This document shows positions 1-47,893 of a stretch of DNA of 64,000 nucleotides, in pieces; the stretch's first letter is position 1, and every line of letters starts with the position of its first letter. Origin of the DNA: Candidatus Nanoarchaeia archaeon. GTDB lineage: Archaea; Nanobdellota; Nanobdellia; Woesearchaeales; SKIA01. The stretch is taken from positions 9-64,008 of the forward strand of contig JANQNG010000051.1 of NCBI GenBank assembly GCA_028279685.1. The letters are read 5' to 3'. Position numbers and translations under genes: made by a program. Under the pieces are notes generated by a model. That model was not told the origin of the DNA. It made no database searches and was given only the letters and a program-made list of their open reading frames with translations.

Positions 1-369
1 ATTCAAATTTACACGGAGTCGTTTTTCAAGATCGTGCTTAATCTCTGTACTGAATTTAAAATAATCTATCTGTACTTCTTTCAGTGCTTCAGTCCGCTCA
101 ACATTAATCTCCGCTACTGCTTCTTCTATCCCTTTGTAATCATCACGTATCTTTTGTTTGATTTGAGCTTCAATATTTTTTTTCTGAGGAATACTCTCAA
201 TAAACTCATCAAAACTCTTCCTGTCATTGATTTTCTGAATTCGCTGTTTATACTCTTGAAAAATCCCTTCATCATGAACAGCACCTGATAATTGCGCAAG
301 CCAGTCTTCCGCAGATAATCTATAGGTTACTGCTAATATATTTGTGAATATTTCATCTTTTGTTACCAT
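1..369 (-). CDS. hypothetical protein, N-terminal 123 codons only (gene runs off the window start); charged and helical, coiled-coil-like
   Basis: Open-ended, so absent from the supplied track. The ATG at 369-367 lies 2 nt after the TAA (374-372) of the 868-aa ORF. I translated minus frame 369->1 by hand and found no stop (MVTKDEIFTNILAVTYRLSAEDWLAQLSG...). Confidence 0.55.
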   Translation of the reverse strand, partial: MVTKDEIFTNILAVTYRLSAEDWLAQLSGAVHDEGIFQEYKQRIQKINDRKSFDEFIESIPQKKNIEAQIKQKIRDDYKGIEEAVAEINVERTEALKEVQIDYFKFSTEIKHDLEKRLRVNLN

Positions 370-371
370 GT

Positions 372-2978
372 TTATTCATCTTCAAACAATTCTTTAATGT
401 AGACATTTCCATTTCTATTCAAAGATCTATAACATTCCTGTTTAATATATTCATCTTCGAATCCCATTGATCGTAATGTATCAACAGCCAAATCTATCAT
501 CTTATATTTCTCCTGCATAATTTCATTGTGCTCAACTTCAATTTTTTTGACAAGTGCAGTGAGTGTATTATTTATTTCTTCTTTCATCTTATTTTGTTCA
601 GCTACTGCAGCATCGTATTTCTTTTTTGCAGCACCTCTGAGTTTTTCAAGAGGATTAGCAAGAATAAGATCACGCTCATGATATGAATTACATCCTCTTT
701 GCCACTCCACAGTAGCCCAGCCCCCTAAAGCATCTCTGCCTCCATCACCAAAATTCTGCTTTAATATTCCTCCTTCTTTAGGAATCTGATTATCACATCC
801 ATAAAATTCGGAATCTTTACGCAGCTTTACTTTAGCTCCAGCTCTCATTTCTCCTCTGAAGATTTCATCAAAGTGAAATGCCTTTTCAACAGGAGCTAAT
901 TTACATTCAATATTTACATTATAACCCTCAATATTAACCCAATGACAGTCTCCTCCACGAGAATGAGTGCCTTTGTATTTTGCAATGGTGTTTTTTTTAT
1001 AACCATTTTCTTTGTCTTTTTCAAGGAGCACAACTTTTTGTCCTTTCTTGAATTTCTTCTTCTGCCCTTCAATAATCCTATATCCTTTAAAAACATACTC
1101 TGACAAGTTTTCTTTAAAATTTACATACTCCTTCTCAGCCATTGTGGCATCTGGATATCGAATAATAAGTTTCATCTCATCCTTAACAGCCTGAAGAACT
1201 TTCCAAGCAAGATTAGCATAACTTACTTCATCAAATTCATTGATCTCCTCAAAGATTGTTCTCTCCTGCAAAGCATCTTCACTAATAATATCTCTATACT
1301 CTTTTACTCTATTATAAAAGAACCATGTTATAACTCCTTCAGGAATACCCATTGCCCTAAACGTATCAAGACTGGAAGTGATTAACTCTTTTCTCCATTG
1401 CTTTTGTTGTGCATATTCTCCTTCAGCCTCTTTAATAATACTTTCAAATTCTTTAAGCAATCCTCCTGTTATCTTTTCAATCTCTTCATTTTTCTTTTTC
1501 ACAGCCTCTTCATCAATCTCTTCAATGTTTACATCGATTTTTTCTATATCAGCATAATTTCTTGGAAGTCTGTCTCCAAATCCAGGAATATGATGAAATT
1601 CGATCTCATAGTGATTATTATCACGCCCTTTGCCAACAATATATCCCCAACTACCTTTTTTAGTGTGTTTATATTTTTCTCCATTAATAACTGTTGCTTT
1701 TCTTCGTCCCGCCTCAAGATTTTCAATATCGAACTCAAGCTCCTCAGCTAATACTATTTCTTCAGGATCTAGGTCAAAATCATATCCATCCAATTCAGAT
1801 CTGAATTCATCACCATCATAAAATCCTAATGTTCCGAGAGGAAGGCCATTAAGCAGAGTGCCATCAGCATATGCATTCCCTTTCAATGCTTTCACCGTAA
1901 TAGCAGATTTGTTCATCTCAGGAGCTTTTTTTGTCTTCTTATACATACTAATTTCAAAATGCAAAAGCTCTCTTTTGAACTTCTCATAATCTTCTTCATC
2001 GTATAAATCATCTAAGACATCACCTAAAAATAGATATAATCCTTTGCGCTCTCTAAGTTTCATTACAATATCTTTTGCAATATCTTCATAATCAAATGAC
2101 TTACTTTCCATCTCTTCAAATTGTTTCAAAATGTCTTGAGTATATCCAAAGCGAGATCGCAATACGCGATTGTATTGCTCTATAGCGTCTTCTATCTTCA
2201 TCTTCCTCAGTTTTTTCGTATGTTTCAATCCAAGGCCGATAATCACTCTTGTAGTTATATCCTCAAGACTTTGTTCAGGATCATTGATCATCTTTTGTAG
2301 ATTTGAAGATTCTTTTTTTGGGAGAAACTGTGCACTTTGTCCGATAAAGATCAATCGTGAAATCTCTTCTATTGTATTGACGAACTGTAAACGATGTTCA
2401 TATCCTTCAGTTAACGGTTTCAAAGCATGTGCAGCAATAAGTGATTCAGAAGAGAATCCTGTGAATAAAGGATTTTGGTATTCTTCGATAATCTCTTCTA
2501 CAACAGGAGTCTTTTTCTCTTCTTCAAGAACAAACTCTCCTGTTTCTATTGAAAATAATCGTTCAAGACTATCTGCAGCAGATCTGCTGAACGCAACAAC
2601 ATACTCATCAAAGGATACATTATGCCGTTCTTTCACAGAAATATGATGTTTAGCTATAGACTCTTTTGCAGCTAAAAAAGAGATGAATGTTTGCATTGAA
2701 GGAACATGCTCATTAGTGAGCATTGTTTTTGCAGATGCCATATTGCCATTTGCAAAATAAGAAGCAAGCATTCCAAAATAAGGCTGCTGTATCTCATGAT
2801 CAATTCTATTTTTTGAATCACTGCGTTCGAGTACAGAAGCTATTTTTTTGACAGGATCAAATGCTACAGGAGCCCATGCTATCTCTTCTTTGCCCCCAAA
2901 TTTTTGATTTTCAATACCTTCATCTAAAAGATCTGCTAAAAAATCATCTTCCTCAATAATCTCTTCTTGTTCTGTCAT
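372..2978 (-). CDS. large hypothetical protein (868 aa) with three SH3/MIB-HERC2-like beta modules and an internal module/coiled-coil/DT(F/L)R(A/S)MG duplication
   Basis: Long ORF whose ATG overlaps the stop of the E1 gene (ATGA at 2975-2978). The module at aa 711-773 (AGAKVKLRKDSEF...GGWATVEWQRGCNSYHERDLIL) fits the G-x-V...W-x-G...V-x-W-x-x-G...Y...DL pattern of MIB/HERC2-type domains. Weaker copies lie at aa ~425-480 and ~641-695. Confidence 0.8.
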   Translation of the reverse strand: MTEQEEIIEEDDFLADLLDEGIENQKFGGKEEIAWAPVAFDPVKKIASVLERSDSKNRIDHEIQQPYFGMLASYFANGNMASAKTMLTNEHVPSMQTFISFLAAKESIAKHHISVKERHNVSFDEYVVAFSRSAADSLERLFSIETGEFVLEEEKKTPVVEEIIEEYQNPLFTGFSSESLIAAHALKPLTEGYEHRLQFVNTIEEISRLIFIGQSAQFLPKKESSNLQKMINDPEQSLEDITTRVIIGLGLKHTKKLRKMKIEDAIEQYNRVLRSRFGYTQDILKQFEEMESKSFDYEDIAKDIVMKLRERKGLYLFLGDVLDDLYDEEDYEKFKRELLHFEISMYKKTKKAPEMNKSAITVKALKGNAYADGTLLNGLPLGTLGFYDGDEFRSELDGYDFDLDPEEIVLAEELEFDIENLEAGRRKATVINGEKYKHTKKGSWGYIVGKGRDNNHYEIEFHHIPGFGDRLPRNYADIEKIDVNIEEIDEEAVKKKNEEIEKITGGLLKEFESIIKEAEGEYAQQKQWRKELITSSLDTFRAMGIPEGVITWFFYNRVKEYRDIISEDALQERTIFEEINEFDEVSYANLAWKVLQAVKDEMKLIIRYPDATMAEKEYVNFKENLSEYVFKGYRIIEGQKKKFKKGQKVVLLEKDKENGYKKNTIAKYKGTHSRGGDCHWVNIEGYNVNIECKLAPVEKAFHFDEIFRGEMRAGAKVKLRKDSEFYGCDNQIPKEGGILKQNFGDGGRDALGGWATVEWQRGCNSYHERDLILANPLEKLRGAAKKKYDAAVAEQNKMKEEINNTLTALVKKIEVEHNEIMQEKYKMIDLAVDTLRSMGFEDEYIKQECYRSLNRNGNVYIKELFEDE

Positions 2979-4468
2979 GCTTCTTGAACCTCTTCTTGCA
3001 AAAGATGAGGATTTGCTTCAACAAATGCAGCAACATCTTCATCTGAAATTTCTAAATCAGGAATATTGTGATGATAACAATCACAGATATCAACTAAAGG
3101 AGAAGTACCGAATCGTTTTTGACCTGTTGATCTGTAGACTTGTTCTCCGTTGAATGGCTCCCCAAAAACATCTGGTCGAAGAACAGTATATGCATCAAGC
3201 ATCGCTGCAACTGCTCCAATAGCGTTGCTCATCACAACAGAAGGATCAGGATTTGCAGCGCAGCTCGCTCTTCTAATCATCTCTTCCTTTCTTCCCTCTT
3301 CATAGATATTGAACATGCAATCCATGCATTGCGTCTTTCCTTCTTGATGTATATCCCATCGTGCGCTATACGGCAATGCTCCTGCGCTTATGGAAGGAAT
3401 TCCTTTTTTGATAGCATATGCTGCATTAATTGCTCTTGTATAACTATTATCAACAAAATCAAACACCACGTCATATTTTATATCAGTATCAAATCCTGGC
3501 AAGATCAAAAGATTATACCCAGTTGATTTTGTTTTTCCTTTGCTCATTTTTTCTATTTTATCAGCAACATGTTCTGCTTTTAGTTTGTCAATACCATCAT
3601 ATGCTAGTATCTGCCTATTAACATTATGTGATTCAAACGTATCGTAATCATACATATCAAGCCTGCCAAATTTCATCAATGTTCCTGCCACGGCACCCCA
3701 GCAGCCTAAACCACCTCCTCCAAGCATAGCAGCAGAAAAATTTTTCAATCCCTTTTCACCAATGAGAGTAGTATTTTCATTCTGAGGAAATCCGAAGCGA
3801 TATCCCTCGCCAAGTTTATACCTCACAGGATCTTCAACTAATGGTTCGCCAAAGATTGCTTTTCTCACCTCTTCTGTAATTACTCCTGCCATAATAAGCG
3901 CCATTAATGCGCTCTGTTGATGTCCTTCAAACATAGGCATAAGAAATGCAGGATCCTGCACTCCATTGACGGTCATAAGTTTTGTATAGCCAGAACGTGA
4001 AGATGTGCTAAGCACGGGAATATCATTCTCTTTTCCATACTGGATCGCCCATCTCTTTGATGCTGCATCATTTGTTGCATCAATAATAACATCAGCACCT
4101 TCTAACGTCAATTGATCTATTCTTGATTCCAGATTAGTTGTATAGCCCTCTATAGTAACCTGCTTATTGATTTTCTGCATAAGCTGAGGATATTGTTCTG
4201 CTTTTGCCCCTTTAGGAACAGACATATCAAGAAACATCTCTCCTCTCTTCACATTACTGCCATCAATCAACACAATATTGCCAACACCTAATGATGTCAT
4301 ACATAACGCAGCATAGACTCCTTGATGATCAAGCCCAACAACAGCAACACGAGCCTGTTCTAATCGTGCTTGTCCATCATCTCCCCAAAGTAACTTCTGA
4401 CGAGCATATCGGTCTTCCTCAATCATCATACCATCTTTCTTTTTCATTGTATTTTCCTCAATGCTCAT
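2975..4468 (-). CDS. ubiquitin-activating E1-like enzyme (ThiF/MoeB/UBA superfamily) with tandem degenerate and intact adenylation domains
   Basis: N-terminal half: DRYARQKLLWG...VAVVGLDHQG...DGSNVKRGE is a ThiF-like fold lacking both the GxGxxG and NxxRQ motifs. C-terminal half is intact: LGGGGLGCWG, DYDTFESHNVNRQ, DFVDN, CMDC...CDC zinc pair, and Cys403 (RRASCAANP) between them. Confidence 0.85.
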   Translation of the reverse strand: MSIEENTMKKKDGMMIEEDRYARQKLLWGDDGQARLEQARVAVVGLDHQGVYAALCMTSLGVGNIVLIDGSNVKRGEMFLDMSVPKGAKAEQYPQLMQKINKQVTIEGYTTNLESRIDQLTLEGADVIIDATNDAASKRWAIQYGKENDIPVLSTSSRSGYTKLMTVNGVQDPAFLMPMFEGHQQSALMALIMAGVITEEVRKAIFGEPLVEDPVRYKLGEGYRFGFPQNENTTLIGEKGLKNFSAAMLGGGGLGCWGAVAGTLMKFGRLDMYDYDTFESHNVNRQILAYDGIDKLKAEHVADKIEKMSKGKTKSTGYNLLILPGFDTDIKYDVVFDFVDNSYTRAINAAYAIKKGIPSISAGALPYSARWDIHQEGKTQCMDCMFNIYEEGRKEEMIRRASCAANPDPSVVMSNAIGAVAAMLDAYTVLRPDVFGEPFNGEQVYRSTGQKRFGTSPLVDICDCYHHNIPDLEISDEDVAAFVEANPHLLQEEVQEA

Positions 4469-6398
4469 CTATGTCATTTCTATCGCTTGTCCCTGAAGAT
4501 CCTATTGGCGTATTATCCCTAATTCTCTTGTATGCCTCAATAACAATAGGGACGTAGTTCTCCAACAGTTTATTTCTTCCTTCTGTACTTGCTTGCGCAA
4601 AGCTATCCATGAACTGCCAGGTAAACTCATCAGCATCTCCAATATAGATCAATTCATGAATTGCATTAGATATAGCATCATCAAGTCTATATGCGCCTGG
4701 CATTTTATGCTTTTTGACAACAAATTCATTATCAGGAATCAAATCACCAACTCTCAATACCGAAGAGGAAACACCGAATAAGAGAGGATCTGTCCTTGGC
4801 CTAGCAGCATACCTATTGACATATGTTGACATCTTATCCAATAAAAACCACGCATAGGTTGAATATTTACATCCTACACTTCTTGCCTCAACAATATAAG
4901 CAGCCAAAGAATAGACAAACCGTTGAGCTATTTCCTCATATTCAAGTGAACTTTCTATCCTAATTTTCATCTCTTGATCATTAGGTAATCTCGTTGATGC
5001 CTTTGTTACTGATCCTCCTTCATTAAGCGCTTCCAATAATGAATTGTCTTCTTCAACAGGTGGTTCCGGCAAAACTAAACTATCCAGGCTTTCCTGTAAC
5101 GTTCTTGGATGCTGATGAATAGGGTAATTTCCGCTATAGATTCCTTCCTGATATATGTAATTTTCATCCTGCCAATTTCTTACTCCAGAAGGCACATTTG
5201 AAACATGAGTTCCATGCATTCCATCTCCTCTAAGAGCACCTGCCACTTTCGCAACAACTTTTTGTTTAGGAGGGAATTTAACACGTTCTTTGACAAGCGC
5301 AGCAACTTCTTCTTTTGTAGGAATATCTATTCCTTTATTCCTCACAATAAGATGCAATCCATTTTCATCATTAGTATCTACGGTAGCATAATTTACTTTT
5401 CCTGTGAGCTTGAATTTCTCCTCAATACCCATCTTAATGTACGGTCCGCCTTTTGCATTATTGAAAACAAAACTTACCGCCGTATGCACTAATCTGGGCT
5501 CGTATGTTCGCTCATCAATTTGCTCTAGCAATCTTGCCAAGAAGTCAGCCTTTTTGAATCCATTGCCATTTGGCTTCAATCCAAATTCATCAAGCAGATT
5601 AAAAAACATCTCATCGTCAGGATAGATGAATCTTTTAACAGCATCTGATAATGCATCACCCTTCAAGCAAAGCTGATCCTCACCATACTCTTTTCTAATT
5701 TTATCTTCAATTAAAGCATACGGTGATTCAATAATACGTCTCGATGTTTTAGCCATTTTATTCACGAGGCTCTTCAAAGACTCATCATCATCTATGCTAT
5801 GATAAAGAGAAGCTTCCTTGTTCCTGTTAGATCCAAAAGGATGAATATGGAACATTGCACCTAAGCGATATTCCGTTCCATTTTCTTTATTCAAAGCCCT
5901 ATTTTCTCTTGCTACTTGATCGTAATGCTCCGCAATTCGGATATCTCTTGAACTAACGGGAAGATCTTTAGGTATAATAAAATCTCTGAATGAAAAAGTA
6001 TCATCGTCCTTATTGATCAGAAAAAATCCTCCTACTTCAAGCGCTTTCTTTCCTTGCTTTTTTGTTTCAGAACCTATCTTATACCCTAATTGCAAACATC
6101 TATCAGCAATATAGATTGTTCTGGGAATAATATCAGTAATAGGCTCTATAGGTTCTGTTTCTTCCTCTTCATCAAGAAAAGTATTAAATAATTCATCAGC
6201 GTAATCTTCATGAATATCATCTAGATTTTCTCCCCTATTAGCAGGACCGTGAATTTGACAGGTTTCATCCAGGCATTCTTCTTCAGCAATAACTTTTGTA
6301 ACAGGAGTTTTTCTCTTTTTTCTTCTCTTCCGACCTGTTTTACTACTTTTTTTATTCGTTGTCATGATCATCACCTTCGAGCGTAATTTTTTTCTCAA
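4458..6398 (-). CDS. JAB/MPN+ (JAMM) metalloprotease-domain protein with basic N-terminal tail and ~430-aa C-terminal extension
   Basis: ALEVGGFFL (Glu121) followed by MFHIHPFGSNRNKEASLYHSIDD gives E...HxH...SxxD with a longer than canonical spacer. The stop overlaps the E1 start by 11 nt. The true start may be Met10 or Met12 (GGTGA upstream). Confidence 0.8.
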   Translation of the reverse strand: MRKKLRSKVMIMTTNKKSSKTGRKRRKKRKTPVTKVIAEEECLDETCQIHGPANRGENLDDIHEDYADELFNTFLDEEEETEPIEPITDIIPRTIYIADRCLQLGYKIGSETKKQGKKALEVGGFFLINKDDDTFSFRDFIIPKDLPVSSRDIRIAEHYDQVARENRALNKENGTEYRLGAMFHIHPFGSNRNKEASLYHSIDDDESLKSLVNKMAKTSRRIIESPYALIEDKIRKEYGEDQLCLKGDALSDAVKRFIYPDDEMFFNLLDEFGLKPNGNGFKKADFLARLLEQIDERTYEPRLVHTAVSFVFNNAKGGPYIKMGIEEKFKLTGKVNYATVDTNDENGLHLIVRNKGIDIPTKEEVAALVKERVKFPPKQKVVAKVAGALRGDGMHGTHVSNVPSGVRNWQDENYIYQEGIYSGNYPIHQHPRTLQESLDSLVLPEPPVEEDNSLLEALNEGGSVTKASTRLPNDQEMKIRIESSLEYEEIAQRFVYSLAAYIVEARSVGCKYSTYAWFLLDKMSTYVNRYAARPRTDPLLFGVSSSVLRVGDLIPDNEFVVKKHKMPGAYRLDDAISNAIHELIYIGDADEFTWQFMDSFAQASTEGRNKLLENYVPIVIEAYKRIRDNTPIGSSGTSDRNDIDEH

Positions 6399-7791
6399 TC
6401 ACCTCAACAACCATATATCTTTTTTCTATGGCCTGTTCTCTTGTCATTGATCCTTGCTTCAGAATATTATCAAGATGATCTCCAAAATATCGATATCCTG
6501 AATGTGAATCAAGGCTCGATTTATTCAGAGGCTGGAGAAATACATTTGCAGCATCACTGAGTTTTCGTATCATATCGCTTATCGTATTTCTATAATCGCG
6601 AGGATTTCTACTAAGATTGCACAGTGTTCTATATCCTCCTGAAGATCTGCCTTTTAAACAAGGATGAAATTCCCTCTTTTCAACAATAAGAGGATTACCT
6701 GTTGTGTATGGTTTTTTATCCCATCCAATTTTGATAGCGACGCGAGTTGCTTCATACGGCCAGAAAACATCATGATTTCTGCCATCTTGCGTAACAAATT
6801 TCGGCAGTCGTGAATAAACATAATAATCTCCATTTTTTAAGATAAACCCGCACTCTCCTAAATCGTACTCATCAAGTTTCGCAAGCTCATGCATCTGCAT
6901 CCCAGTAACTTCTTTTGTTTCAATCTGATCTTTAATCTGATCAAACGCATCCTGGCTTCTTTCAAGAGCATTAATACGCCATTTCTTTTTGCTTCGCTCG
7001 ATAAATTCATGTTCTATCTCTTTAAGAGAAGGTAATCTTTCTTTTGATAGAGATAATATCTTACCATCAATGTTGAATACAAATTGATCTTTTTTTGCAG
7101 CCTTATGTTTCTGCAATGCCAAAAAATTTCTGCCAACAATGTACAATGCAAAAACTTTTCCATCAACAACATATAATGGTTGATATGCAGTTATTTCTCC
7201 CAATAATGATTTTGGAACGCCATTAGTATGTACAAATTGAGGAACAATTGCACCAGTTTTTATTTCTCTTTTCTCTTTTTTGAGCACTGATTGTCTCATC
7301 CTTTCAGCAGGATCCTGCTTTTCTCCCATTTCCATATTGCCGAAATCAGCTGTAAGTTTCTCTCTAATTTCTTTCTTGGCTCTTTCAAGAGGCTGTTCAA
7401 CTTTTGTTTCTTCAAAAATTTCCTCTTGAAGCAACTCATCAGAGACGTATTTTTTACTTAGCAAATACGGTAAAAACTCTTCCATAATGTAATGTAATGC
7501 ATGTATTCTACTCTCTTCTTGCTTCAGTTCACTTTCCGCACGCAATTCTTTATCAATTGTATCTTTGACAAATTCTCTGGAATATGATTCTATACTTTTT
7601 CTCTGTAACTGCTCATCAAGCAATTCCCATTCTCGATAAGAAAGCGATGGCATTATAGGTAATTGTATCTCTCCTGCTTGTAAAAAATCAGAGGATTTGC
7701 CGGAATCAATTATACTAAACACTCTTCCTTCATAAAGAATAAAGGAAGATTCCCTTTCGGCAATCCTTTCTAAAAAACTCGTTATTTCCAT
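6352..7791 (-). CDS. hypothetical protein (479 aa) with candidate E2/UBC-like catalytic core in the C-terminal third
   Basis: aa ~320-425: YYVYSRLP...WPYEATRVAIKIGWDKKPY...REFHPCLKGRSSGGYRTLCNL...ISDMIRKLSDAANVFLQPLN. This resembles the UBC layout: beta sheet, HP(N) flap, Cys, then a helix ending in P-L-N. It sits between the 205-aa ORF and the JAB gene. The assignment is inference only. Confidence 0.45.
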   Translation of the reverse strand: MEITSFLERIAERESSFILYEGRVFSIIDSGKSSDFLQAGEIQLPIMPSLSYREWELLDEQLQRKSIESYSREFVKDTIDKELRAESELKQEESRIHALHYIMEEFLPYLLSKKYVSDELLQEEIFEETKVEQPLERAKKEIREKLTADFGNMEMGEKQDPAERMRQSVLKKEKREIKTGAIVPQFVHTNGVPKSLLGEITAYQPLYVVDGKVFALYIVGRNFLALQKHKAAKKDQFVFNIDGKILSLSKERLPSLKEIEHEFIERSKKKWRINALERSQDAFDQIKDQIETKEVTGMQMHELAKLDEYDLGECGFILKNGDYYVYSRLPKFVTQDGRNHDVFWPYEATRVAIKIGWDKKPYTTGNPLIVEKREFHPCLKGRSSGGYRTLCNLSRNPRDYRNTISDMIRKLSDAANVFLQPLNKSSLDSHSGYRYFGDHLDNILKQGSMTREQAIEKRYMVVEVIEKKITLEGDDHDNE

Positions 7792-7815
7792 TCTTGCATT
7801 ATCTTATTACTAATC

Positions 7816-8433
7816 TTAGCTTTGCAAAGCATATCCTGGCGTAATAATAGCAGATACAACAAGCTCGATACCAGCCATCATCTCAACAGGCTTATCCTTA
7901 TCCATAACACGTTTATCTTTTTCTCCTATTTCATCAATTGGCTTTGGAACCTTCTTTTTGCCTTCCTGAACAAAACCCATCTTAACAAAATAACTATTCA
8001 GCATCGAATCTCCTGTCACTCTCTGTCCATTAACACTAAGAGCATAACCTCTAAAGTTTCCTCCTCGCTTTGCTGCTAAATCTTTGACTTCTCCTGTTCC
8101 TAGCATTTCGTCTTTGATACGATCAATAGCTTCCTGCTGTTTCCTGTTAATATTTCTCTGATATTTTGCTCTGTCTTTTTCAGGAACTGCTTTACCGCTC
8201 AATTTCACTTCTTCGCCAATTGTATACTGTGCAATTTGCTCTGCAGTACCATATGCGAGAATCGCTCTGTCTTGCCCTCTTACCGAGTAGGTAACACGAT
8301 CACCCTCAATACATCCAGGGTAAACAGTTAATGCCATAGGCATATCTCCTATATCATCCAGCGTAAATGCCTTCTTTCTTATCTTCTTTTCACCATCTTT
8401 ATTTTCCGGTCTTTCGCCATCGTATTTTCCCAT
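7816..8433 (-). CDS. hypothetical protein (205 aa); possible Ubl/substrate candidate of the operon
   Basis: ORF preceded by a GGGGGAAAG SD-like motif. Internal ...DLAAKRGG|NFRG (aa 118-128) followed by a ThiS/MoaD-like YALSVNGQRVTGDSM stretch. There is no C-terminal GG. Confidence 0.6.
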   Translation of the reverse strand: MGKYDGERPENKDGEKKIRKKAFTLDDIGDMPMALTVYPGCIEGDRVTYSVRGQDRAILAYGTAEQIAQYTIGEEVKLSGKAVPEKDRAKYQRNINRKQQEAIDRIKDEMLGTGEVKDLAAKRGGNFRGYALSVNGQRVTGDSMLNSYFVKMGFVQEGKKKVPKPIDEIGEKDKRVMDKDKPVEMMAGIELVVSAIITPGYALQS

Positions 8434-8473
8434 TTTTCTTTCCCCCGATATCCTTTAGAATACCAAATCATCA

Positions 8474-8707
8474 TCAGGATGTCTTATCCTCCTTGCCTTC
8501 TACAAGATTATGTATATCCTGAAATTGACGATCATAATTTCTTGTCATAAGATTAATTATTTCTGTGGCATCGCAATCAAAAATAATCTCTCTCCAAAAT
8601 TCAGCATTAAGAAAGCTTCTTTTTAAACCCTCTTTCCGTGTGATGTGCAAATCTAGCTGATTCAACAAAAATGGATAATTATTACGGATTTCCTTCGTAT
8701 CGAACAT
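8474..8707 (-). CDS. hypothetical small protein (77 aa), first gene of the operon
   Basis: ORF only. It is co-directional, 40 nt upstream of the next gene and downstream of an AT-rich promoter-like region. No recognisable motif. Confidence 0.45.
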   Translation of the reverse strand: MFDTKEIRNNYPFLLNQLDLHITRKEGLKRSFLNAEFWREIIFDCDATEIINLMTRNYDRQFQDIHNLVEGKEDKTS

Positions 8708-8841
8708 CTTTCCATCCCGTCACTACGCTCTTTCCCTTGTTAAGAGGATATAAAAATAATTTATAAGCCTTTCGATTTCACACCACTCCAGAATGGTAAA
8801 TAAAGCAAAAAGCTTAAATAATTTTCAAAAATTGCAACCCC

Positions 8842-10209
8842 ATGGATACGTTAGCAACAATAATCAGATCAATCAATGGAAATACTCCAGATCCTGAAGA
8901 GGTAACTCTTGAAGAACTCCCCATAGATTATAAAGAATTTTGTGATCAACTCATAGAATCTACTGCAAAAACATTAGATCTTTCTTTAAAAAGAAATAAA
9001 TTTCTCCATACAAGCAACGATGATGCATTAATTCCAAATGCCGCAAAATATATCAAATCAGCCATTATTAATATGCAGAAGAATTCATTAATTCCAGAAC
9101 TAAAAATTGGGGAAAAAGTAAGGCCAGTTCAACTTCTAGGGTTTGATGTTGAAAATCCTGATAAAGAAACGTATTATTATGGAGGAGACACTGATGATAT
9201 TCCTTTAGGCATAGAAGCTTTTGTAGCAGAAATTCCTACGAAAGAAAGAATAAAAGTGATCATAAAAAATGGAAAGCAATCTAAGATATGGCAATTACAC
9301 CCTAATGAAATAGAAACAACAAGCGAGAATATTTACTCTGCCTTGATGGAAAGTAATCGTATTGAAACATCACTTAGTGAAGATGTGAAGAAATTATTCC
9401 CTGGATTTATTCACAGAGCCAAAATTCTTGTTGATAGTAGTTATGCTCTCTCAAAATCATTTGTTCCTTTAGATATTGAGATGCCAAAAGCACTCGCACC
9501 CTTCTCCATTTACACTAGTTCTCTTGAACAACAACTTATTGAAAAATATGGAAGGCCAGATATCAGCAAACTTAAATTACGATGCAAGATAGATGAAGCA
9601 GAAGAAAAAAATTGCAATACCGCTGTTCCAGGATTCAAATATAGAAGAGATTACCAGCATCTCGCAAAAGCATTCAAAGGACTCAAGACTCCTTGCTCAA
9701 TGCACGTTCACTCTCTTGATGAGTTAAAGATGCATATTTCAATTGTTTACCAGATTGCATTCAATCATTATGTCCTCGGTAAATCTACAGCAATGCAAGG
9801 AAGATTTCCCAATAATTGCTGTGGAGAGTCAGGAGGAAATATGTTTAATTCATTATTGAATTTTGGATATGTCAATACCTTTAAAATGAGCAGCAATAAT
9901 GATCATTGTTATGTATCACTTCCTTTTGTCCTTGATGGAGTTGGAGGTTGTGTTGTTTGCGACCCTACTTCCAATCAGATGTGGCATAAATTAAAGATTG
10001 CTCCTAGAAATGCAGTTTTTATTATGTTAGGACCAGATTTTGAATACAAAACACATTGGCATGGTGGTGTTGATCTTATTCCAGGATCTTGCAATTATAT
10101 CTCAATAGAGAATAATCATGCTTCAACAAAGAATGGAGAAATAAGAAAATCATTGGAAAACGCTTACAATAATCCTGTCAGATTATTCAATCGAAATGAT
10201 ATTCTCTGA
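8842..10209 (+). CDS. hypothetical protein with C-terminal papain/transglutaminase-fold Cys-His-Asp core
   Basis: NNCCGESGGNMFNSLLNFGY...NNDHCYVSLPF...GGCVVCDPTSNQ (Cys326/327, His355, Asp374). This has the order and spacing typical of transglutaminase-like cysteine peptidase cores. Divergently transcribed from the E1/JAB operon. Confidence 0.55.
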   Translation: MDTLATIIRSINGNTPDPEEVTLEELPIDYKEFCDQLIESTAKTLDLSLKRNKFLHTSNDDALIPNAAKYIKSAIINMQKNSLIPELKIGEKVRPVQLLGFDVENPDKETYYYGGDTDDIPLGIEAFVAEIPTKERIKVIIKNGKQSKIWQLHPNEIETTSENIYSALMESNRIETSLSEDVKKLFPGFIHRAKILVDSSYALSKSFVPLDIEMPKALAPFSIYTSSLEQQLIEKYGRPDISKLKLRCKIDEAEEKNCNTAVPGFKYRRDYQHLAKAFKGLKTPCSMHVHSLDELKMHISIVYQIAFNHYVLGKSTAMQGRFPNNCCGESGGNMFNSLLNFGYVNTFKMSSNNDHCYVSLPFVLDGVGGCVVCDPTSNQMWHKLKIAPRNAVFIMLGPDFEYKTHWHGGVDLIPGSCNYISIENNHASTKNGEIRKSLENAYNNPVRLFNRNDIL

Positions 10210-10255: not shown

Positions 10256-10486
10256 TTATCTTCTACCACAACCACAAGATTTAACTCCGCATTGACCGCC
10301 GCATGTTCCACCGCAGCTACTTCCAGCTCCACACGCTCCTGGTCCACACGTCGGTGCAGAAGCTTCCTGAATAACAGGATTTTCCTCTACTGGTTCTGCC
10401 TGCTCCTGAAATGAAGTATAGGCAAATACTGTACCTGCTATAATCACAACAGCAAACACAACCACCATAATAACTTTCCATTGCAT
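10256..10486 (-). CDS. small membrane-anchored Cys/Gly-rich protein (76 aa)
   Basis: N-terminal TM helix (VIMVVVFAVVIIAGTVFAY), then CGPGACGAGSSCGGTCGGQCGVKSCGCGRR. Strong AAGGAGG SD upstream of the ATG. Confidence 0.6.
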   Translation of the reverse strand: MQWKVIMVVVFAVVIIAGTVFAYTSFQEQAEPVEENPVIQEASAPTCGPGACGAGSSCGGTCGGQCGVKSCGCGRR

Positions 10487-41854: not shown

Positions 41855-41920
41855 GCCTTATTGAGACAAGTACAAGAATATATATTTTGTGAATCTTGAG
41901 AGTTTTATTTATAAAAGAAA

Positions 41921-42190
41921 GAGGGCACGCCCCTGGATGGACACAAACAACCCATTTCGGCTTACCCTAGGCTTTCCTCCCCTCCGCTACCCAAGATACA
42001 CAGCTATTCTCACTTAGAGCTGCTTCATTCCTGACCTGACTCGGTTCGTAAGAACCACCGTCATCAAGGACAGAGGATCGACAGTCCCCCTAGGACCAAA
42101 CTGAGCAGCAATGCCGCTCCAGGAGCTTCGACCATACCATAAGGCCCGTTTGTACTAACAGGGAAGGGCCAACTCCCCAGCCTAGCCCAT
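41921..42190 (-). ncRNA. signal recognition particle RNA (archaeal 7S/SRP RNA)
   Basis: ORF-free, GC-enriched block. The minus strand reads GGGCTAGGCTGGGGAGTTGGCCC... (Alu-domain 5' end) and ...GAGTCAGGTCAGGAATGAAGCAGCTCTAAG (helix-8 GGUCAGG...GAAGCAGC motif). TATA-like CTTTAAAA lies ~25 nt upstream and a T-rich tract downstream. Confidence 0.85.
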
Positions 42191-42211
42191 ACATAGTAAA
42201 TCAGAAGTTGC

Positions 42212-47098: not shown

Positions 47099-47773
47099 TT
47101 AACAAGCACTAACATCTATCTCCATTCTCCAAGCATTTCCTTCGCCCGATATTTTTTTATCTATTACGTTTAATGGTTTTTTGAATAATGGACAGTTTAA
47201 TACAAATGACTCAAACTCTCCTCCCTCTCCTGCAGGACTAATACCATATTGTTTTTCCATTTTTTTCATATCTTCAATAAATTGCTTGTTTATTGTTCTT
47301 CCAAGCCAAGAATCATCTAACGGATATGCAGCAATTCCAATAACAATAACTTCAAAGTTATGCTTCAATAACAATTCAAGAAGTTCAATGCTATCCATTT
47401 GCCATAATGGATTAATACACTTAATCCCCAAATCATCGCAAATCTTCTGAATACGCGATGCTTGATAGACACTTTGCACAGCACCTGTGGTAATAGCTTC
47501 AATATTATATTTTTCTTTAGCATTTTTCAATGCAGCAACAAGATCAACAAGCTCTTTCTCTTTCTCTCCTTTTGTAGCACATGTTAAAAGAGGCAATCCC
47601 ATTACTTCAGCCTGTTTCTCAGTCTTTGCTATTGAGGGCGTATGAAACATATAGCTATCAGGATTCTCAGATATCATAGAAATACAGCAGACTAGCTCAT
47701 GACCATCCTGTTTTGCCAAGAAAGCAGCTAATGTGCTGTCTTTTCCTCCAGAAAATAACACTCCAATTCTCAT
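47099..47773 (-). CDS. dph6: diphthine-ammonia ligase (Dph6-like, MJ0570 family PP-loop ATPase)
   Basis: MRIGVLFSGGKDSTLA PP-loop, ...GEGGEFESFVLNCPLF. Start set at ATG 47773. Confidence 0.8.
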   Translation of the reverse strand: MRIGVLFSGGKDSTLAAFLAKQDGHELVCCISMISENPDSYMFHTPSIAKTEKQAEVMGLPLLTCATKGEKEKELVDLVAALKNAKEKYNIEAITTGAVQSVYQASRIQKICDDLGIKCINPLWQMDSIELLELLLKHNFEVIVIGIAAYPLDDSWLGRTINKQFIEDMKKMEKQYGISPAGEGGEFESFVLNCPLFKKPLNVIDKKISGEGNAWRMEIDVSAC

Positions 47774-47893
47774 ACGTTTGTGAATTGATTTACTCTTTAA
47801 TAGTTTTTTGTTGCTTCTTGCAAATCCATAACATTTATATACTAGTTCTTTCACTATTTTTCATAATTACGAAAAATACGGAATTTACCGAAA

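Follow-up and report, generated by a model that had tools for sequence, protein, structure and literature searches.

A conserved gene cassette of DPANN archaea with a two-domain E1-like enzyme, a predicted JAMM protease and a putative ubiquitin-like protein

A 64,000-nt stretch of contig JANQNG010000051.1 from a Candidatus Nanoarchaeia archaeon (the window; all coordinates of its open reading frames, ORFs, are counted along its forward strand) begins with a chain of minus-strand genes. Among them are genes for an enzyme of the ubiquitin-activating (E1) type, a predicted JAMM metalloprotease, a putative ubiquitin-like protein (Ubl) and a conserved protein in the position of a ubiquitin-conjugating (E2) enzyme. 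The eight genes considered here are as follows.

A, 8474-8707, minus strand: 77 aa.
B, 7816-8433, minus strand: 205 aa.
C, 6352-7791, minus strand: 479 aa.
D, 4458-6398 as 646 aa from a TTG codon, or 4458-6365 as 635 aa from an ATG codon, minus strand: predicted JAMM/MPN+ protein.
E, 2975-4468, minus strand: 497 aa, with two ThiF domains.
F, 372-2978, minus strand: accessory protein of 868 aa.
G, 1-369, minus strand, with its ATG at 367-369: the first 123 codons of a frame that runs off the end of the window and of the contig.
H, 8842-10209, plus strand: 455 aa, divergently transcribed.

All of the minus-strand ORFs listed in an earlier sequence-only reading of this DNA were recovered with the same coordinates, and three of the junctions it described are exact, namely the 4-nt overlap at 2975-2978, the 11-nt overlap at 4458-4468 and the 2-nt gap at 370-371. 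The 47-nt overlap given for C and D exists only from the most upstream TTG and shrinks to 14 nt when D starts at ATG 6365. This ATG is the most likely start, given that the alignment of D homologues (n=20) begins at Met12 of the 646-aa numbering and that a GGTGA Shine-Dalgarno-like site lies 6 nt upstream of it. The chain of ORFs is not a product of chance, since other genomes hold orthologues of every ORF from A to G, arranged alike. As had been proposed, the DNA comes from an archaeon of DPANN type: an archaeal signal recognition particle RNA at 41919-42192 (minus strand) is the sole Rfam match in the window, in which ARAGORN found no tRNA gene, and the named homologues belong to Woesearchaeota, Nanoarchaeota and unclassified 'archaeon' metagenome-assembled genomes, with two locus records labelled 'uncultured Methanosarcinales'. 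When all eight proteins were scanned against Pfam, NCBIfam, PADLOC and PHROGs, a real match was obtained for E alone, plus PHROG families without assigned function for the C-terminus of F.

Protein E is the component most readily classified. The tandem ThiF/E1 domains expected from the sequence were borne out by Pfam, whose ThiF family (PF00899) matched over two stretches at 2.4e-44. Searches against PDB sequences paired residues ~13-175 with MoeB, ThiF, NAE1/APPBP1, SAE1 and Uba4, and residues ~232-400 with SAE2/UBA2, TcdA, MccB, PaaA and the active domain of Uba1. Motifs were read from an alignment of 12 orthologues compared by eye with E. coli ThiF. The N-terminal half has a degenerate nucleotide loop (GLDHQG at residues 45-50; GSDFTA and similar in orthologues) and lacks N..RQ; the RYxRQ arginine motif (RYARQ, residues 20-24) is invariant there. 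The C-terminal half carries GGGGLG at 250-255, DYDTFESHNVNRQ (DYD..N..RQ) at 274-286 and a zinc-type site of the form C-x2-[CH] ... C-x-C (CMDC at 381-384 and CDC at 462-464), all conserved in the 12 orthologues, as well as D.VDN..TR. Cys403, within 'RRASC', is invariant and aligns with the crossover-loop C184 of E. coli ThiF. No rhodanese domain was detected in E by Pfam. In the PADLOC and NCBIfam scans, partial matches were also recorded to models of Cap2-type E1-E2 proteins (7e-12; about 1e-11 in PADLOC) and to the 6A-MBL cap2_3 model (1e-9). On these features, E is classed as a single-chain, E1-like adenylating enzyme, with an inactive-type followed by an active ThiF domain. The candidate catalytic residue is the crossover-loop cysteine, as in ThiF/MoeB-like and non-canonical E1s.

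The JAMM motifs claimed for D are present, with E121, H184, H186, S201 and D204 (646-aa numbering, as for all residues of D) invariant in 20 homologues. D itself gave no match to Pfam or to PDB sequences and profiles, and a scan of its aligned members against Pfam and PADLOC returned nothing consistent. In an AlphaFold2 (AF2) model the MPN region, residues 85-230, has a pLDDT of ~90 and is followed by a beta-rich domain and then a helical C-terminal domain. Nearly all of the top 50 Foldseek matches of this model in the PDB are MPN proteins (BRCC36, Rpn11, CSN5, CSN6, Rpn8 and Cap3), with a probability of up to 1.0 and a best E-value of 1e-3. Relatives add to this picture. In the related locus L012, the counterpart of D by position matches Pfam Prok-JAB at 1.4e-6 (28.6 bits, cut-off 25); a homologue in L013 (BLASTP 1.7e-22) matches the same family at 0.0019; and the proteins that L016, L019 and L020 have in the JAB position carry E...HxH...SxxD as well. 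By its motif and modelled fold, D is classed as a JAMM/MPN+ metalloprotease; some 400 residues beyond the MPN region have no assigned function.

Protein C has 17 close homologues of 39-52% identity and founds an unannotated family, which an exhaustive profile search of 1.84 billion proteins resolved into 196 clusters at 50% identity, mostly of 430-560 aa. Across 62 divergent members (14-50% identity) only G315 is invariant, and P108, P330, H376, P377 and C391 are conserved in at least 90%; C378, which makes up a local 'HPC', is not conserved beyond the close clade. The AF2 model has a mean pLDDT of 78.7, rising to about 90 over residues 300-465. Its C-terminal domain (residues ~298-462) consists of a helix, a 6-7-stranded beta-meander, a long loop with H376-P377...C391 and 3-4 helices, an order of elements compatible with that of the ubiquitin-conjugating (UBC) fold with extra strands. 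The spacing of HP...C is 14-15 residues in this family versus 10 in E2s, and HP is followed by Cys or Phe, where E2s have Asn. C is a candidate thioester carrier ('E2-like'), although H376, P377 and C391 could instead bind a metal. In a Foldseek search of predicted viral structures (BFVD), the model weakly resembled unnamed phage proteins comparable to C in length (A0A516KZW4, A0A516LAI7 and A0A1B0WLX5; E about 4e-3, probability 0.95), so that viruses may carry proteins of the same fold.

B lies directly upstream of C in every locus that covers the position. Its Gly200 (codon 7834-7836) is invariant in the 13 sequences of the alignment A5. In an alignment of B, the conserved part ends in 'GGVELVVSAIIxPG', and behind the invariant glycine stands a tail of 5 aa (YALQS) in the window and of 5-27 residues overall, the tails being unrelated to one another and showing no conservation even of their Cys, Ser or Thr content. 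The B-position proteins of six more distant loci are shorter (112-155 aa) and end in '...IIVAAKQTQG-YY', '...IVVASEEQYG-LCY', '...VSAVQQGG-LYD', '...ILSSEEGG-VQTGYE', '...IAATDVGAG-DLEKLL' and '...IVASEQTGG-LERSL'. A glycine (as PG, GG, QG, YG or AG) followed by a tail of 2-27 aa was found in 15 loci, that is, in the 13 aligned sequences and in L019 and L020. The motif 'GY.(V)NG..V' also occurs in the distant proteins, and the overall pattern, 'GY..(V)NG..V ... (E/D)(L/I)xV(S/A)xxxxG(G)' or 'xVNGxxV ... ELVVSAIIxPG', resembles ThiS/MoaD. B is therefore likely to be a Ubl or sulfur-carrier precursor, with a glycine and a variable tail as in precursors of the ThiS, MoaD and ubiquitin type, and the statement in the sequence-only reading that the operon has no recognisable Ubl is probably wrong.

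The neighbourhoods of related genes were compared in two sets. The close set, assembled by look-ups and by scanning 185,579 species genomes, consists of 10 distinct Woesearchaeota/Nanoarchaeota loci beyond the window; seven of the species genomes matched two peptide patterns, which is a lower bound, and a third homologue search, with a deep alignment (A3), returned almost only this close set. As far as the contigs reach, the close loci share the order SufS-like desulfurase, a protein here called X, B, C, D, E, F and then one to three radical S-adenosylmethionine (radical-SAM) genes. The desulfurase is ~500 aa long in relatives (NCBIfam sufS, 7e-100). The radical-SAM genes encode a ~450-aa B12-binding type and/or a type of 750-810 aa, the catalytic domain of which also matches class-B families.

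The distant set comprises six further loci of the C family (L012, L013, L014, L016, L019 and L020). Where the contig allows, their order is a small Gly-tailed protein, C, a D-like protein, a two-domain ThiF protein and either a protein like the N-terminal domain of F or a long F-like protein. The D-like gene stands between C and E1 in five of the six, L014 having E1 directly after C, and of the five D-like proteins four are recognisable as JAB, through Pfam or the HxH...SxxD motif. No desulfurase or radical-SAM gene was found in these six loci. Their accessory genes encode a protein kinase in L012, an AAA ATPase in both L016 and L019 (joined by a helicase in L019) and a protein of 914-948 aa in L013 and L020. 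The comparison of the two sets indicates that the evolutionary unit is B-C-D-E(-F) and that the desulfurase, X and the radical-SAM genes are a clade-specific addition.

The order proposed for the operon is thus conserved in 10 close and six distant loci, with the one gap in L014. Neither the window nor the 16 related loci contain Moa or Thi partner genes; the view of E as an ordinary MoeB/ThiF enzyme beside such genes was accordingly rejected, its two-domain layout also speaking against it. MBL-fold genes near three loci were considered as a possible part of the system and judged to be conserved housekeeping synteny (RNase Z-like, beside tRNA-processing genes). At the edges of two loci, an integrase-like fragment (Phage_int_SAM_4, faint) adjoins a close locus (L021 111-539, minus strand), and two pairs of nucleotidyltransferase (NTP_transf_2) genes lie upstream of a distant one (L014 134-2581); these are possible signs of a mobile or defence-island context.

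Within the close set, the window is the only one of 11 loci (itself included) in which the desulfurase is reduced to 77 aa and X is gone. By BLASTP, A matches the start (residues ~1-130) of Aminotran_5 proteins, 499-529 aa in length, from L003, L004, L007, L008, L009, L010 and L011, and it has a weak Pfam Aminotran_5 match at profile positions 53-88. It is a relic of the N-terminal part of a SufS-like cysteine desulfurase from which the catalytic part is missing, and A as the Ubl was ruled out on the same ground. No other desulfurase or X sequence was found by tblastn in the 64-kb window. X and most of the desulfurase have been lost here, and the radical-SAM gene is still attached. In relatives, X is a protein of 520-740 aa (~650) between the desulfurase and B (for example L004 7350-9293) with an invariant C-terminal M..CPxGGC-x8-10-GGC; it has no family match and may be the persulfide or Fe-S acceptor of the SufS-like enzyme.

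The two large proteins downstream of E fared differently from what had been described. G was taken for an extra large coiled-coil protein. It matches by BLASTP the N-termini of proteins in L001 (17157-19475, 772 aa, 3e-17), L004 (18566-20836, 756 aa) and L011 (17797-20097), which have Pfam Radical_SAM in their C-terminal half and match NCBIfam class-B (B12-type) radical-SAM families. G is therefore the N-terminus of a member of a ~750-810 aa radical-SAM enzyme family and not a protein of the kind supposed. F consists of a conserved N-terminal domain of ~290 aa and two repeat units, each with a beta-rich segment, a coiled coil and 'DT(F/L)R(A/S)MG'. Its orthologues (822-1243 aa) follow E in all of the 10 close loci that reach that far, and its N-terminal domain is found as a separate gene of 245-296 aa after E1 in the distant loci L016, L019 and L020. 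F has no match in Pfam, NCBIfam or PADLOC. The SH3/MIB-HERC2 modules ascribed to it found no support in Pfam, in which only weak SH3_15/SH3_12 hints appeared in two orthologues. Residues 711-860 (window 399-848) match phage families without known function (phrog_11307, 1.3e-6; phrog_18715, 1.4e-4).

The divergently transcribed H does contain the Cys326/327, His355 and Asp374 noted before, whereas the papain/transglutaminase fold assigned to them is unsupported by any profile or PDB match. Its C-terminal half gave no match in Pfam, NCBIfam, PHROG or the PDB, and no close relative of H was found in JGI metagenomes. Residues 15-194 (window 8884-9423) form a ~190-aa 'YYGG' module with the signature 'GD..EV..GFD.D.P..YYYGG..D.PLG..GE....W..HP.E..TG.N.Y'. 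In hmmsearch a profile of this module recovered H at 2e-71, the radical-SAM proteins at 1e-64 to 1e-80 and most F orthologues at 1e-7 to 1e-26. It also occurs in accessory proteins of L016 and L019 and at the N-terminus of the C proteins of L014 and L015. Against Pfam it gave only weak SH3_15/SH3_12 hints. Carriers of the module include the following.

L001, 17157-19475.
L004, 18566-20836.
L003, 15187-18765.
L016, 18157-19365.
L019, 16935-17756.
L014, 3671-5290.

From its distribution the module looks like a common docking domain. Its presence in H, in the long radical-SAM proteins and in the F orthologues ties H to the system.

Taken together, B-C-D-E-F is considered, by a modest balance of probability, to form a new archaeal (DPANN) type of cassette for activating and transferring a Ubl, built like the BilABCD operons of bacteria. 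In those operons the order is Ubl, E2, deubiquitinase (DUB) and E1, BilD joins an inactive and an active adenylation domain (IAD and AAD) in tandem, and the protease is predicted to pre-process the tail of the Ubl (PMC10557695). The match of the small protein, C, JAB protein and E1 to BilA-B-C-D, which the sequence-only reading had pointed out, holds (PMC10557695) and supports a conjugation cassette. So does the layout of E, in which an inactive and an active ThiF domain are combined as in conjugating E1s (BilD, Uba1 and NAE1/UBA3) and not as in the single-domain, homodimeric E1s of sulfur carriers. Further points in favour are the intact JAMM/MPN+ enzyme D, the glycine and variable tail of B, which recall Ubl precursors that depend on a protease for maturation, and, in C, the conserved H376, P377 and C391 and the UBC-like order of secondary-structure elements. 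Sulfur transfer does not seem intrinsic to the core, as distant loci lack the desulfurase and radical-SAM genes and the desulfurase of the window is a relic while B to F are intact.

Under this reading B would be made as a precursor, and the JAMM protease D would trim its variable tail to expose Gly200. The C-terminal ThiF domain of E would then adenylate Gly200, with the degenerate N-terminal domain supplying the RYxRQ arginine finger, and E would take B onto the crossover-loop Cys403 as a thioester. From there B may be passed to Cys391 of C, which would stand in for an E2, be it a true UBC homologue or not. As a protein with beta-rich modules, F might serve as a scaffold or target selector, and F and the shared module could direct B to targets or bring enzymes to it. 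D may also reverse the linkage. We infer each chemical step and the nature of the targets; what is observed is how E is built as an E1, the fold and motif that mark D as a JAMM protein, the conserved gene order, the Gly and tail of B and the conserved HP...C of C.

Several results weigh against a conjugation cassette, and those on C come first among them. None of its 62 members matched Pfam UQ_con or Prok-E2, single-sequence and profile searches of C against PDB sequences gave no match, and PADLOC had none for the family. Foldseek of the C model against the PDB, which holds hundreds of E2 chains, reached a best E-value of 0.5 with no E2 among the top 50. An hhalign comparison of the family with four human E2s (approximate sequences) paired HPF..IC with HPN..IC alone, at a probability of 0.7%. 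The 'HP...C UBC-like core' of the sequence-only reading is thus half upheld: the HP...C is there and near-invariant, and no profile or fold search supports the UBC fold. As no test ties C to E2s, it is taken here for a conserved cysteine protein in the E2 position rather than a UBC-family member; it may be unrelated to UBC proteins or a relative too remote to be recognised. B likewise gave no Pfam or PDB-profile match, which leaves a beta-grasp link unsupported by profiles, and hhalign of its family against E. coli ThiS and MoaD stayed below significance (probability <1%), even if it aligned 'GAALAINQQIV' of ThiS with 'GYALSVNGQRV' of B. E has no inserted CYS domain, there being 18 residues from CMDC to Cys403 versus 10 in E. 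coli ThiF, and no ubiquitin-fold domain (UFD), its 497 aa being taken up by two ThiF domains and a ~60-aa tail; its best NCBIfam matches, which fall short of the curated cut-offs, are to ThiF/MoeB. Neither RING nor HECT nor any further ligase (E3) domain is recognisable. Finally, a SufS-like gene and X are present in all the other close loci that reach there (9-10; L006 does not), radical-SAM genes follow F in the eight close loci that reach, and such flanks are the usual company of sulfur-carrier pairs of E1 and Ubl.

These flanks, with the desulfurase and X before the operon and B12/radical-SAM genes after it, open a sulfur-transfer or biosynthetic alternative. The main rival reading is a sulfur-carrier pathway, in which the processed glycine of B would be adenylated by E and converted to a thiocarboxylate, with sulfur coming from the SufS-like enzyme via X and perhaps Cys391 of C. 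The B12/radical-SAM enzymes would use the product or act alongside, in the making of a sulfur-containing cofactor, nucleoside or metabolite; D would only mature or recycle B, and there would be no tagging. A protease in the role of D has precedents in Mec+ for CysO and QbsD for QbsE. The SufS-like gene, X with its CPxGGC...GGC and the one to three B12/radical-SAM genes of the close loci all suit this pathway, as do the ThiF/MoeB affinity of E without CYS and UFD, the ThiS-like local pattern of B and the failure to detect C as an E2. It is nevertheless held to be unlikely. B-F of the window keep all key residues, and the radical-SAM gene is retained, even though the desulfurase is fragmentary and X is gone; the distant members keep the small protein, C, JAB protein and E1 with neither desulfurase nor radical-SAM gene; and E is pseudo-heterodimeric, of two domains and without rhodanese, unlike the known sulfur-carrier E1s. 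Moa and Thi genes are absent nearby, and the desulfurase and X might just as well be an Fe-S source reserved for the radical-SAM enzymes. The radical-SAM genes also bear on a pathway of the kind that makes ribosomally synthesized and post-translationally modified peptides (RiPPs), or another carrier-bound biosynthesis. What the radical-SAM enzymes modify and D then cuts off would there be the tail of B, or else a residue that E had attached to Gly200, with the body of B as leader or scaffold and C and F in recognition. Many RiPP precursors do have a conserved body and a hypervariable C-terminal tail, the layout seen in B; MccB and PaaA, ThiF-like proteins that act on peptide C-termini, are among the PDB matches of E; and the class-B families matched by the radical-SAM enzymes have among their members modifiers of peptides and proteins, such as ApyD and the MCR glutamine C-methyltransferase. 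Against this, some tails in loci without a radical-SAM gene are only two or three residues long (YY, LCY, LYD), a leader of ~200 aa would be unusual, nothing is conserved in the tails, including their Cys, Ser and Thr content, and a two-domain E1 with a strictly invariant glycine fits Ubl chemistry better. Such a role is thought very improbable.

Two further proposals concern what a conjugation cassette would be used for. In an antiviral or conflict role in the sense of Bil, the cassette would tag proteins of an invader, host or partner, with the accessories (radical-SAM proteins, kinase, AAA ATPase, helicase and H) as effectors or sensors. Being a sub-case of the conjugation reading, it bears on role and not on chemistry, and its likelihood is not to be added to those of the other explanations. 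The sporadic and rare distribution, the conserved core with swapped accessories and the integrase-like fragment and nucleotidyltransferase pairs beside two of the loci are in keeping with defence. So are the phage-family matches of the F C-terminus, the weak resemblance of the C model to phage proteins and the weak matches of E to Cap2-type and 6A-MBL defence models. Conversely, B, C, D and F match no PADLOC model, the genes nearby are of an ordinary housekeeping kind, both in the window and at most of the loci, and no CapH/CapP-type regulators were found. A defence role is regarded as possible, though doubtful. The more elaborate proposal is of DPANN Ubl tagging that uses a carrier family unrelated to UBC, with B12/radical-SAM and other effectors docked onto the tag or onto target proteins via the shared ~190-aa module, possibly in episymbiont-host or viral conflict. 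This is judged quite unlikely as a whole; if true, it would be the first link of Ubl conjugation with radical-SAM protein chemistry.

The conjugation cassette favoured here appears to work most like the Bil operons, to whose family it does not belong. With BilABCD of Type I/II, which is ISG15-like and bacterial (PMC10557695), it shares the gene order, a single-chain inactive and active E1, the predicted removal of the Ubl tail by a protease and the lack of a recognisable E3 domain. It differs in that B, C and D have no detectable homology to Bil proteins or PADLOC models, that E has a crossover-loop cysteine only and no helical CYS insertion, and that C is a 479-aa protein without a demonstrable UBC fold. 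Further differences are the 205-aa length of B, F as a fifth conserved gene, an archaeal host, the linkage within the clade to a SufS-like gene, X and radical-SAM genes, and the absence of CapH/CapP.

Other systems share parts of the plan. The archaeal SAMP/UbaA/HvJAMM1 and eukaryotic Urm1/Uba4 systems, which act both as sulfur carriers and as modifiers (PMC4443979; PMC4048286), likewise combine a Ubl with a C-terminal glycine, a ThiF-type E1 and, for archaeal SAMP, a JAMM protease; they too have a desulfurase-derived sulfur link, and a canonical E2 is not needed there. UbaA and Uba4 are, however, single-domain homodimers (Uba4 with a rhodanese domain), whereas E is a two-domain chain without one, and SAMP genes are scattered, in contrast to the five-gene operon described here; neither system has equivalents of C or F or a radical-SAM link. 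The Caldiarchaeum/Asgard operon for ubiquitin, E1, E2, RING and Rpn11 (PMC5654768; PMC3082918) resembles the cassette in having an archaeal Ubl, an E1, a protein in the E2 position and a JAMM enzyme. Its ubiquitin, UBC and RING proteins are recognisable by sequence, whereas here only E1 and, via structure, JAMM are, and there is no RING. Type II CBASS (cyclic-oligonucleotide-based antiphage signalling) with Cap2/Cap3 is linked by the weak match of E to Cap2 models (1e-11) and by Cap3 among the structural matches of D, and the Bub pathway offers an example of strongly diverged E1, E2 and Ubl sets with unusual chemistry, including oxyester intermediates and a serine protease (PMC11601596). Cap2, however, is an E1-E2 fusion that conjugates the CD-NTase, and in neither Cap2/Cap3 nor Bub is there a counterpart of C or F, or an independent two-ThiF E1 resembling E.

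The cassette may also be set beside bacterial sulfur pathways. CysO-MoeZ-CysM-Mec+ and QbsE-QbsC-QbsD are operonic combinations of Ubl, E1, JAMM protein and pyridoxal phosphate (PLP) enzyme, in which the JAMM protein cuts at the C-terminal glycine of the Ubl and takes off extra residues. Their Ubls, which carry thiocarboxylates and are matured or recycled by the JAMM protein, are of ~90 aa with Gly-Gly, the E1 has a rhodanese domain, and no C-like, F-like or radical-SAM genes are present.

A search of the literature found no description of such a cassette for DPANN archaea. The system is real, conserved and unannotated; the identities of B as Ubl and of C as carrier are only putative. Complete operons of Ubl, E2, DUB and E1 are known from bacteria (Bil, Bub and CBASS) and a few eukaryote-like archaeal lineages, and the cassette would add an archaeal branch to them. 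In that branch only the E1 can be recognised by sequence, the protease needs a fold search, the tag is ~200 aa long with a single invariant glycine, and the E2 position is filled by an unannotated family of ~196 clusters. The fixed link, within one clade, to a desulfurase and class-B radical-SAM enzymes puts it where sulfur-carrier chemistry borders on protein tagging, a transition thought to have yielded ubiquitin signalling. As the system is small, modular and expressible, the choice between conjugation and thiocarboxylate formation is directly testable in vitro.

Two minor observations were made on other genes of the window. Beyond H, a 76-aa protein encoded at 10256-10486 (minus strand) begins with a membrane or signal segment, ends in a Cys/Gly-rich tail (CGPGACGAGSSCGGTCGGQCGVKSCGCG) and adjoins a 170-aa membrane protein with a winged-helix-like C-terminal region. 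Further along, the product of 47138-47800 (minus strand) shares 39% identity with the diphthamide-synthase-like C-terminus of a 680-aa protein that fuses Asn_synthase and Diphthami_syn_2; in L001 this fusion is encoded just upstream of the operon.

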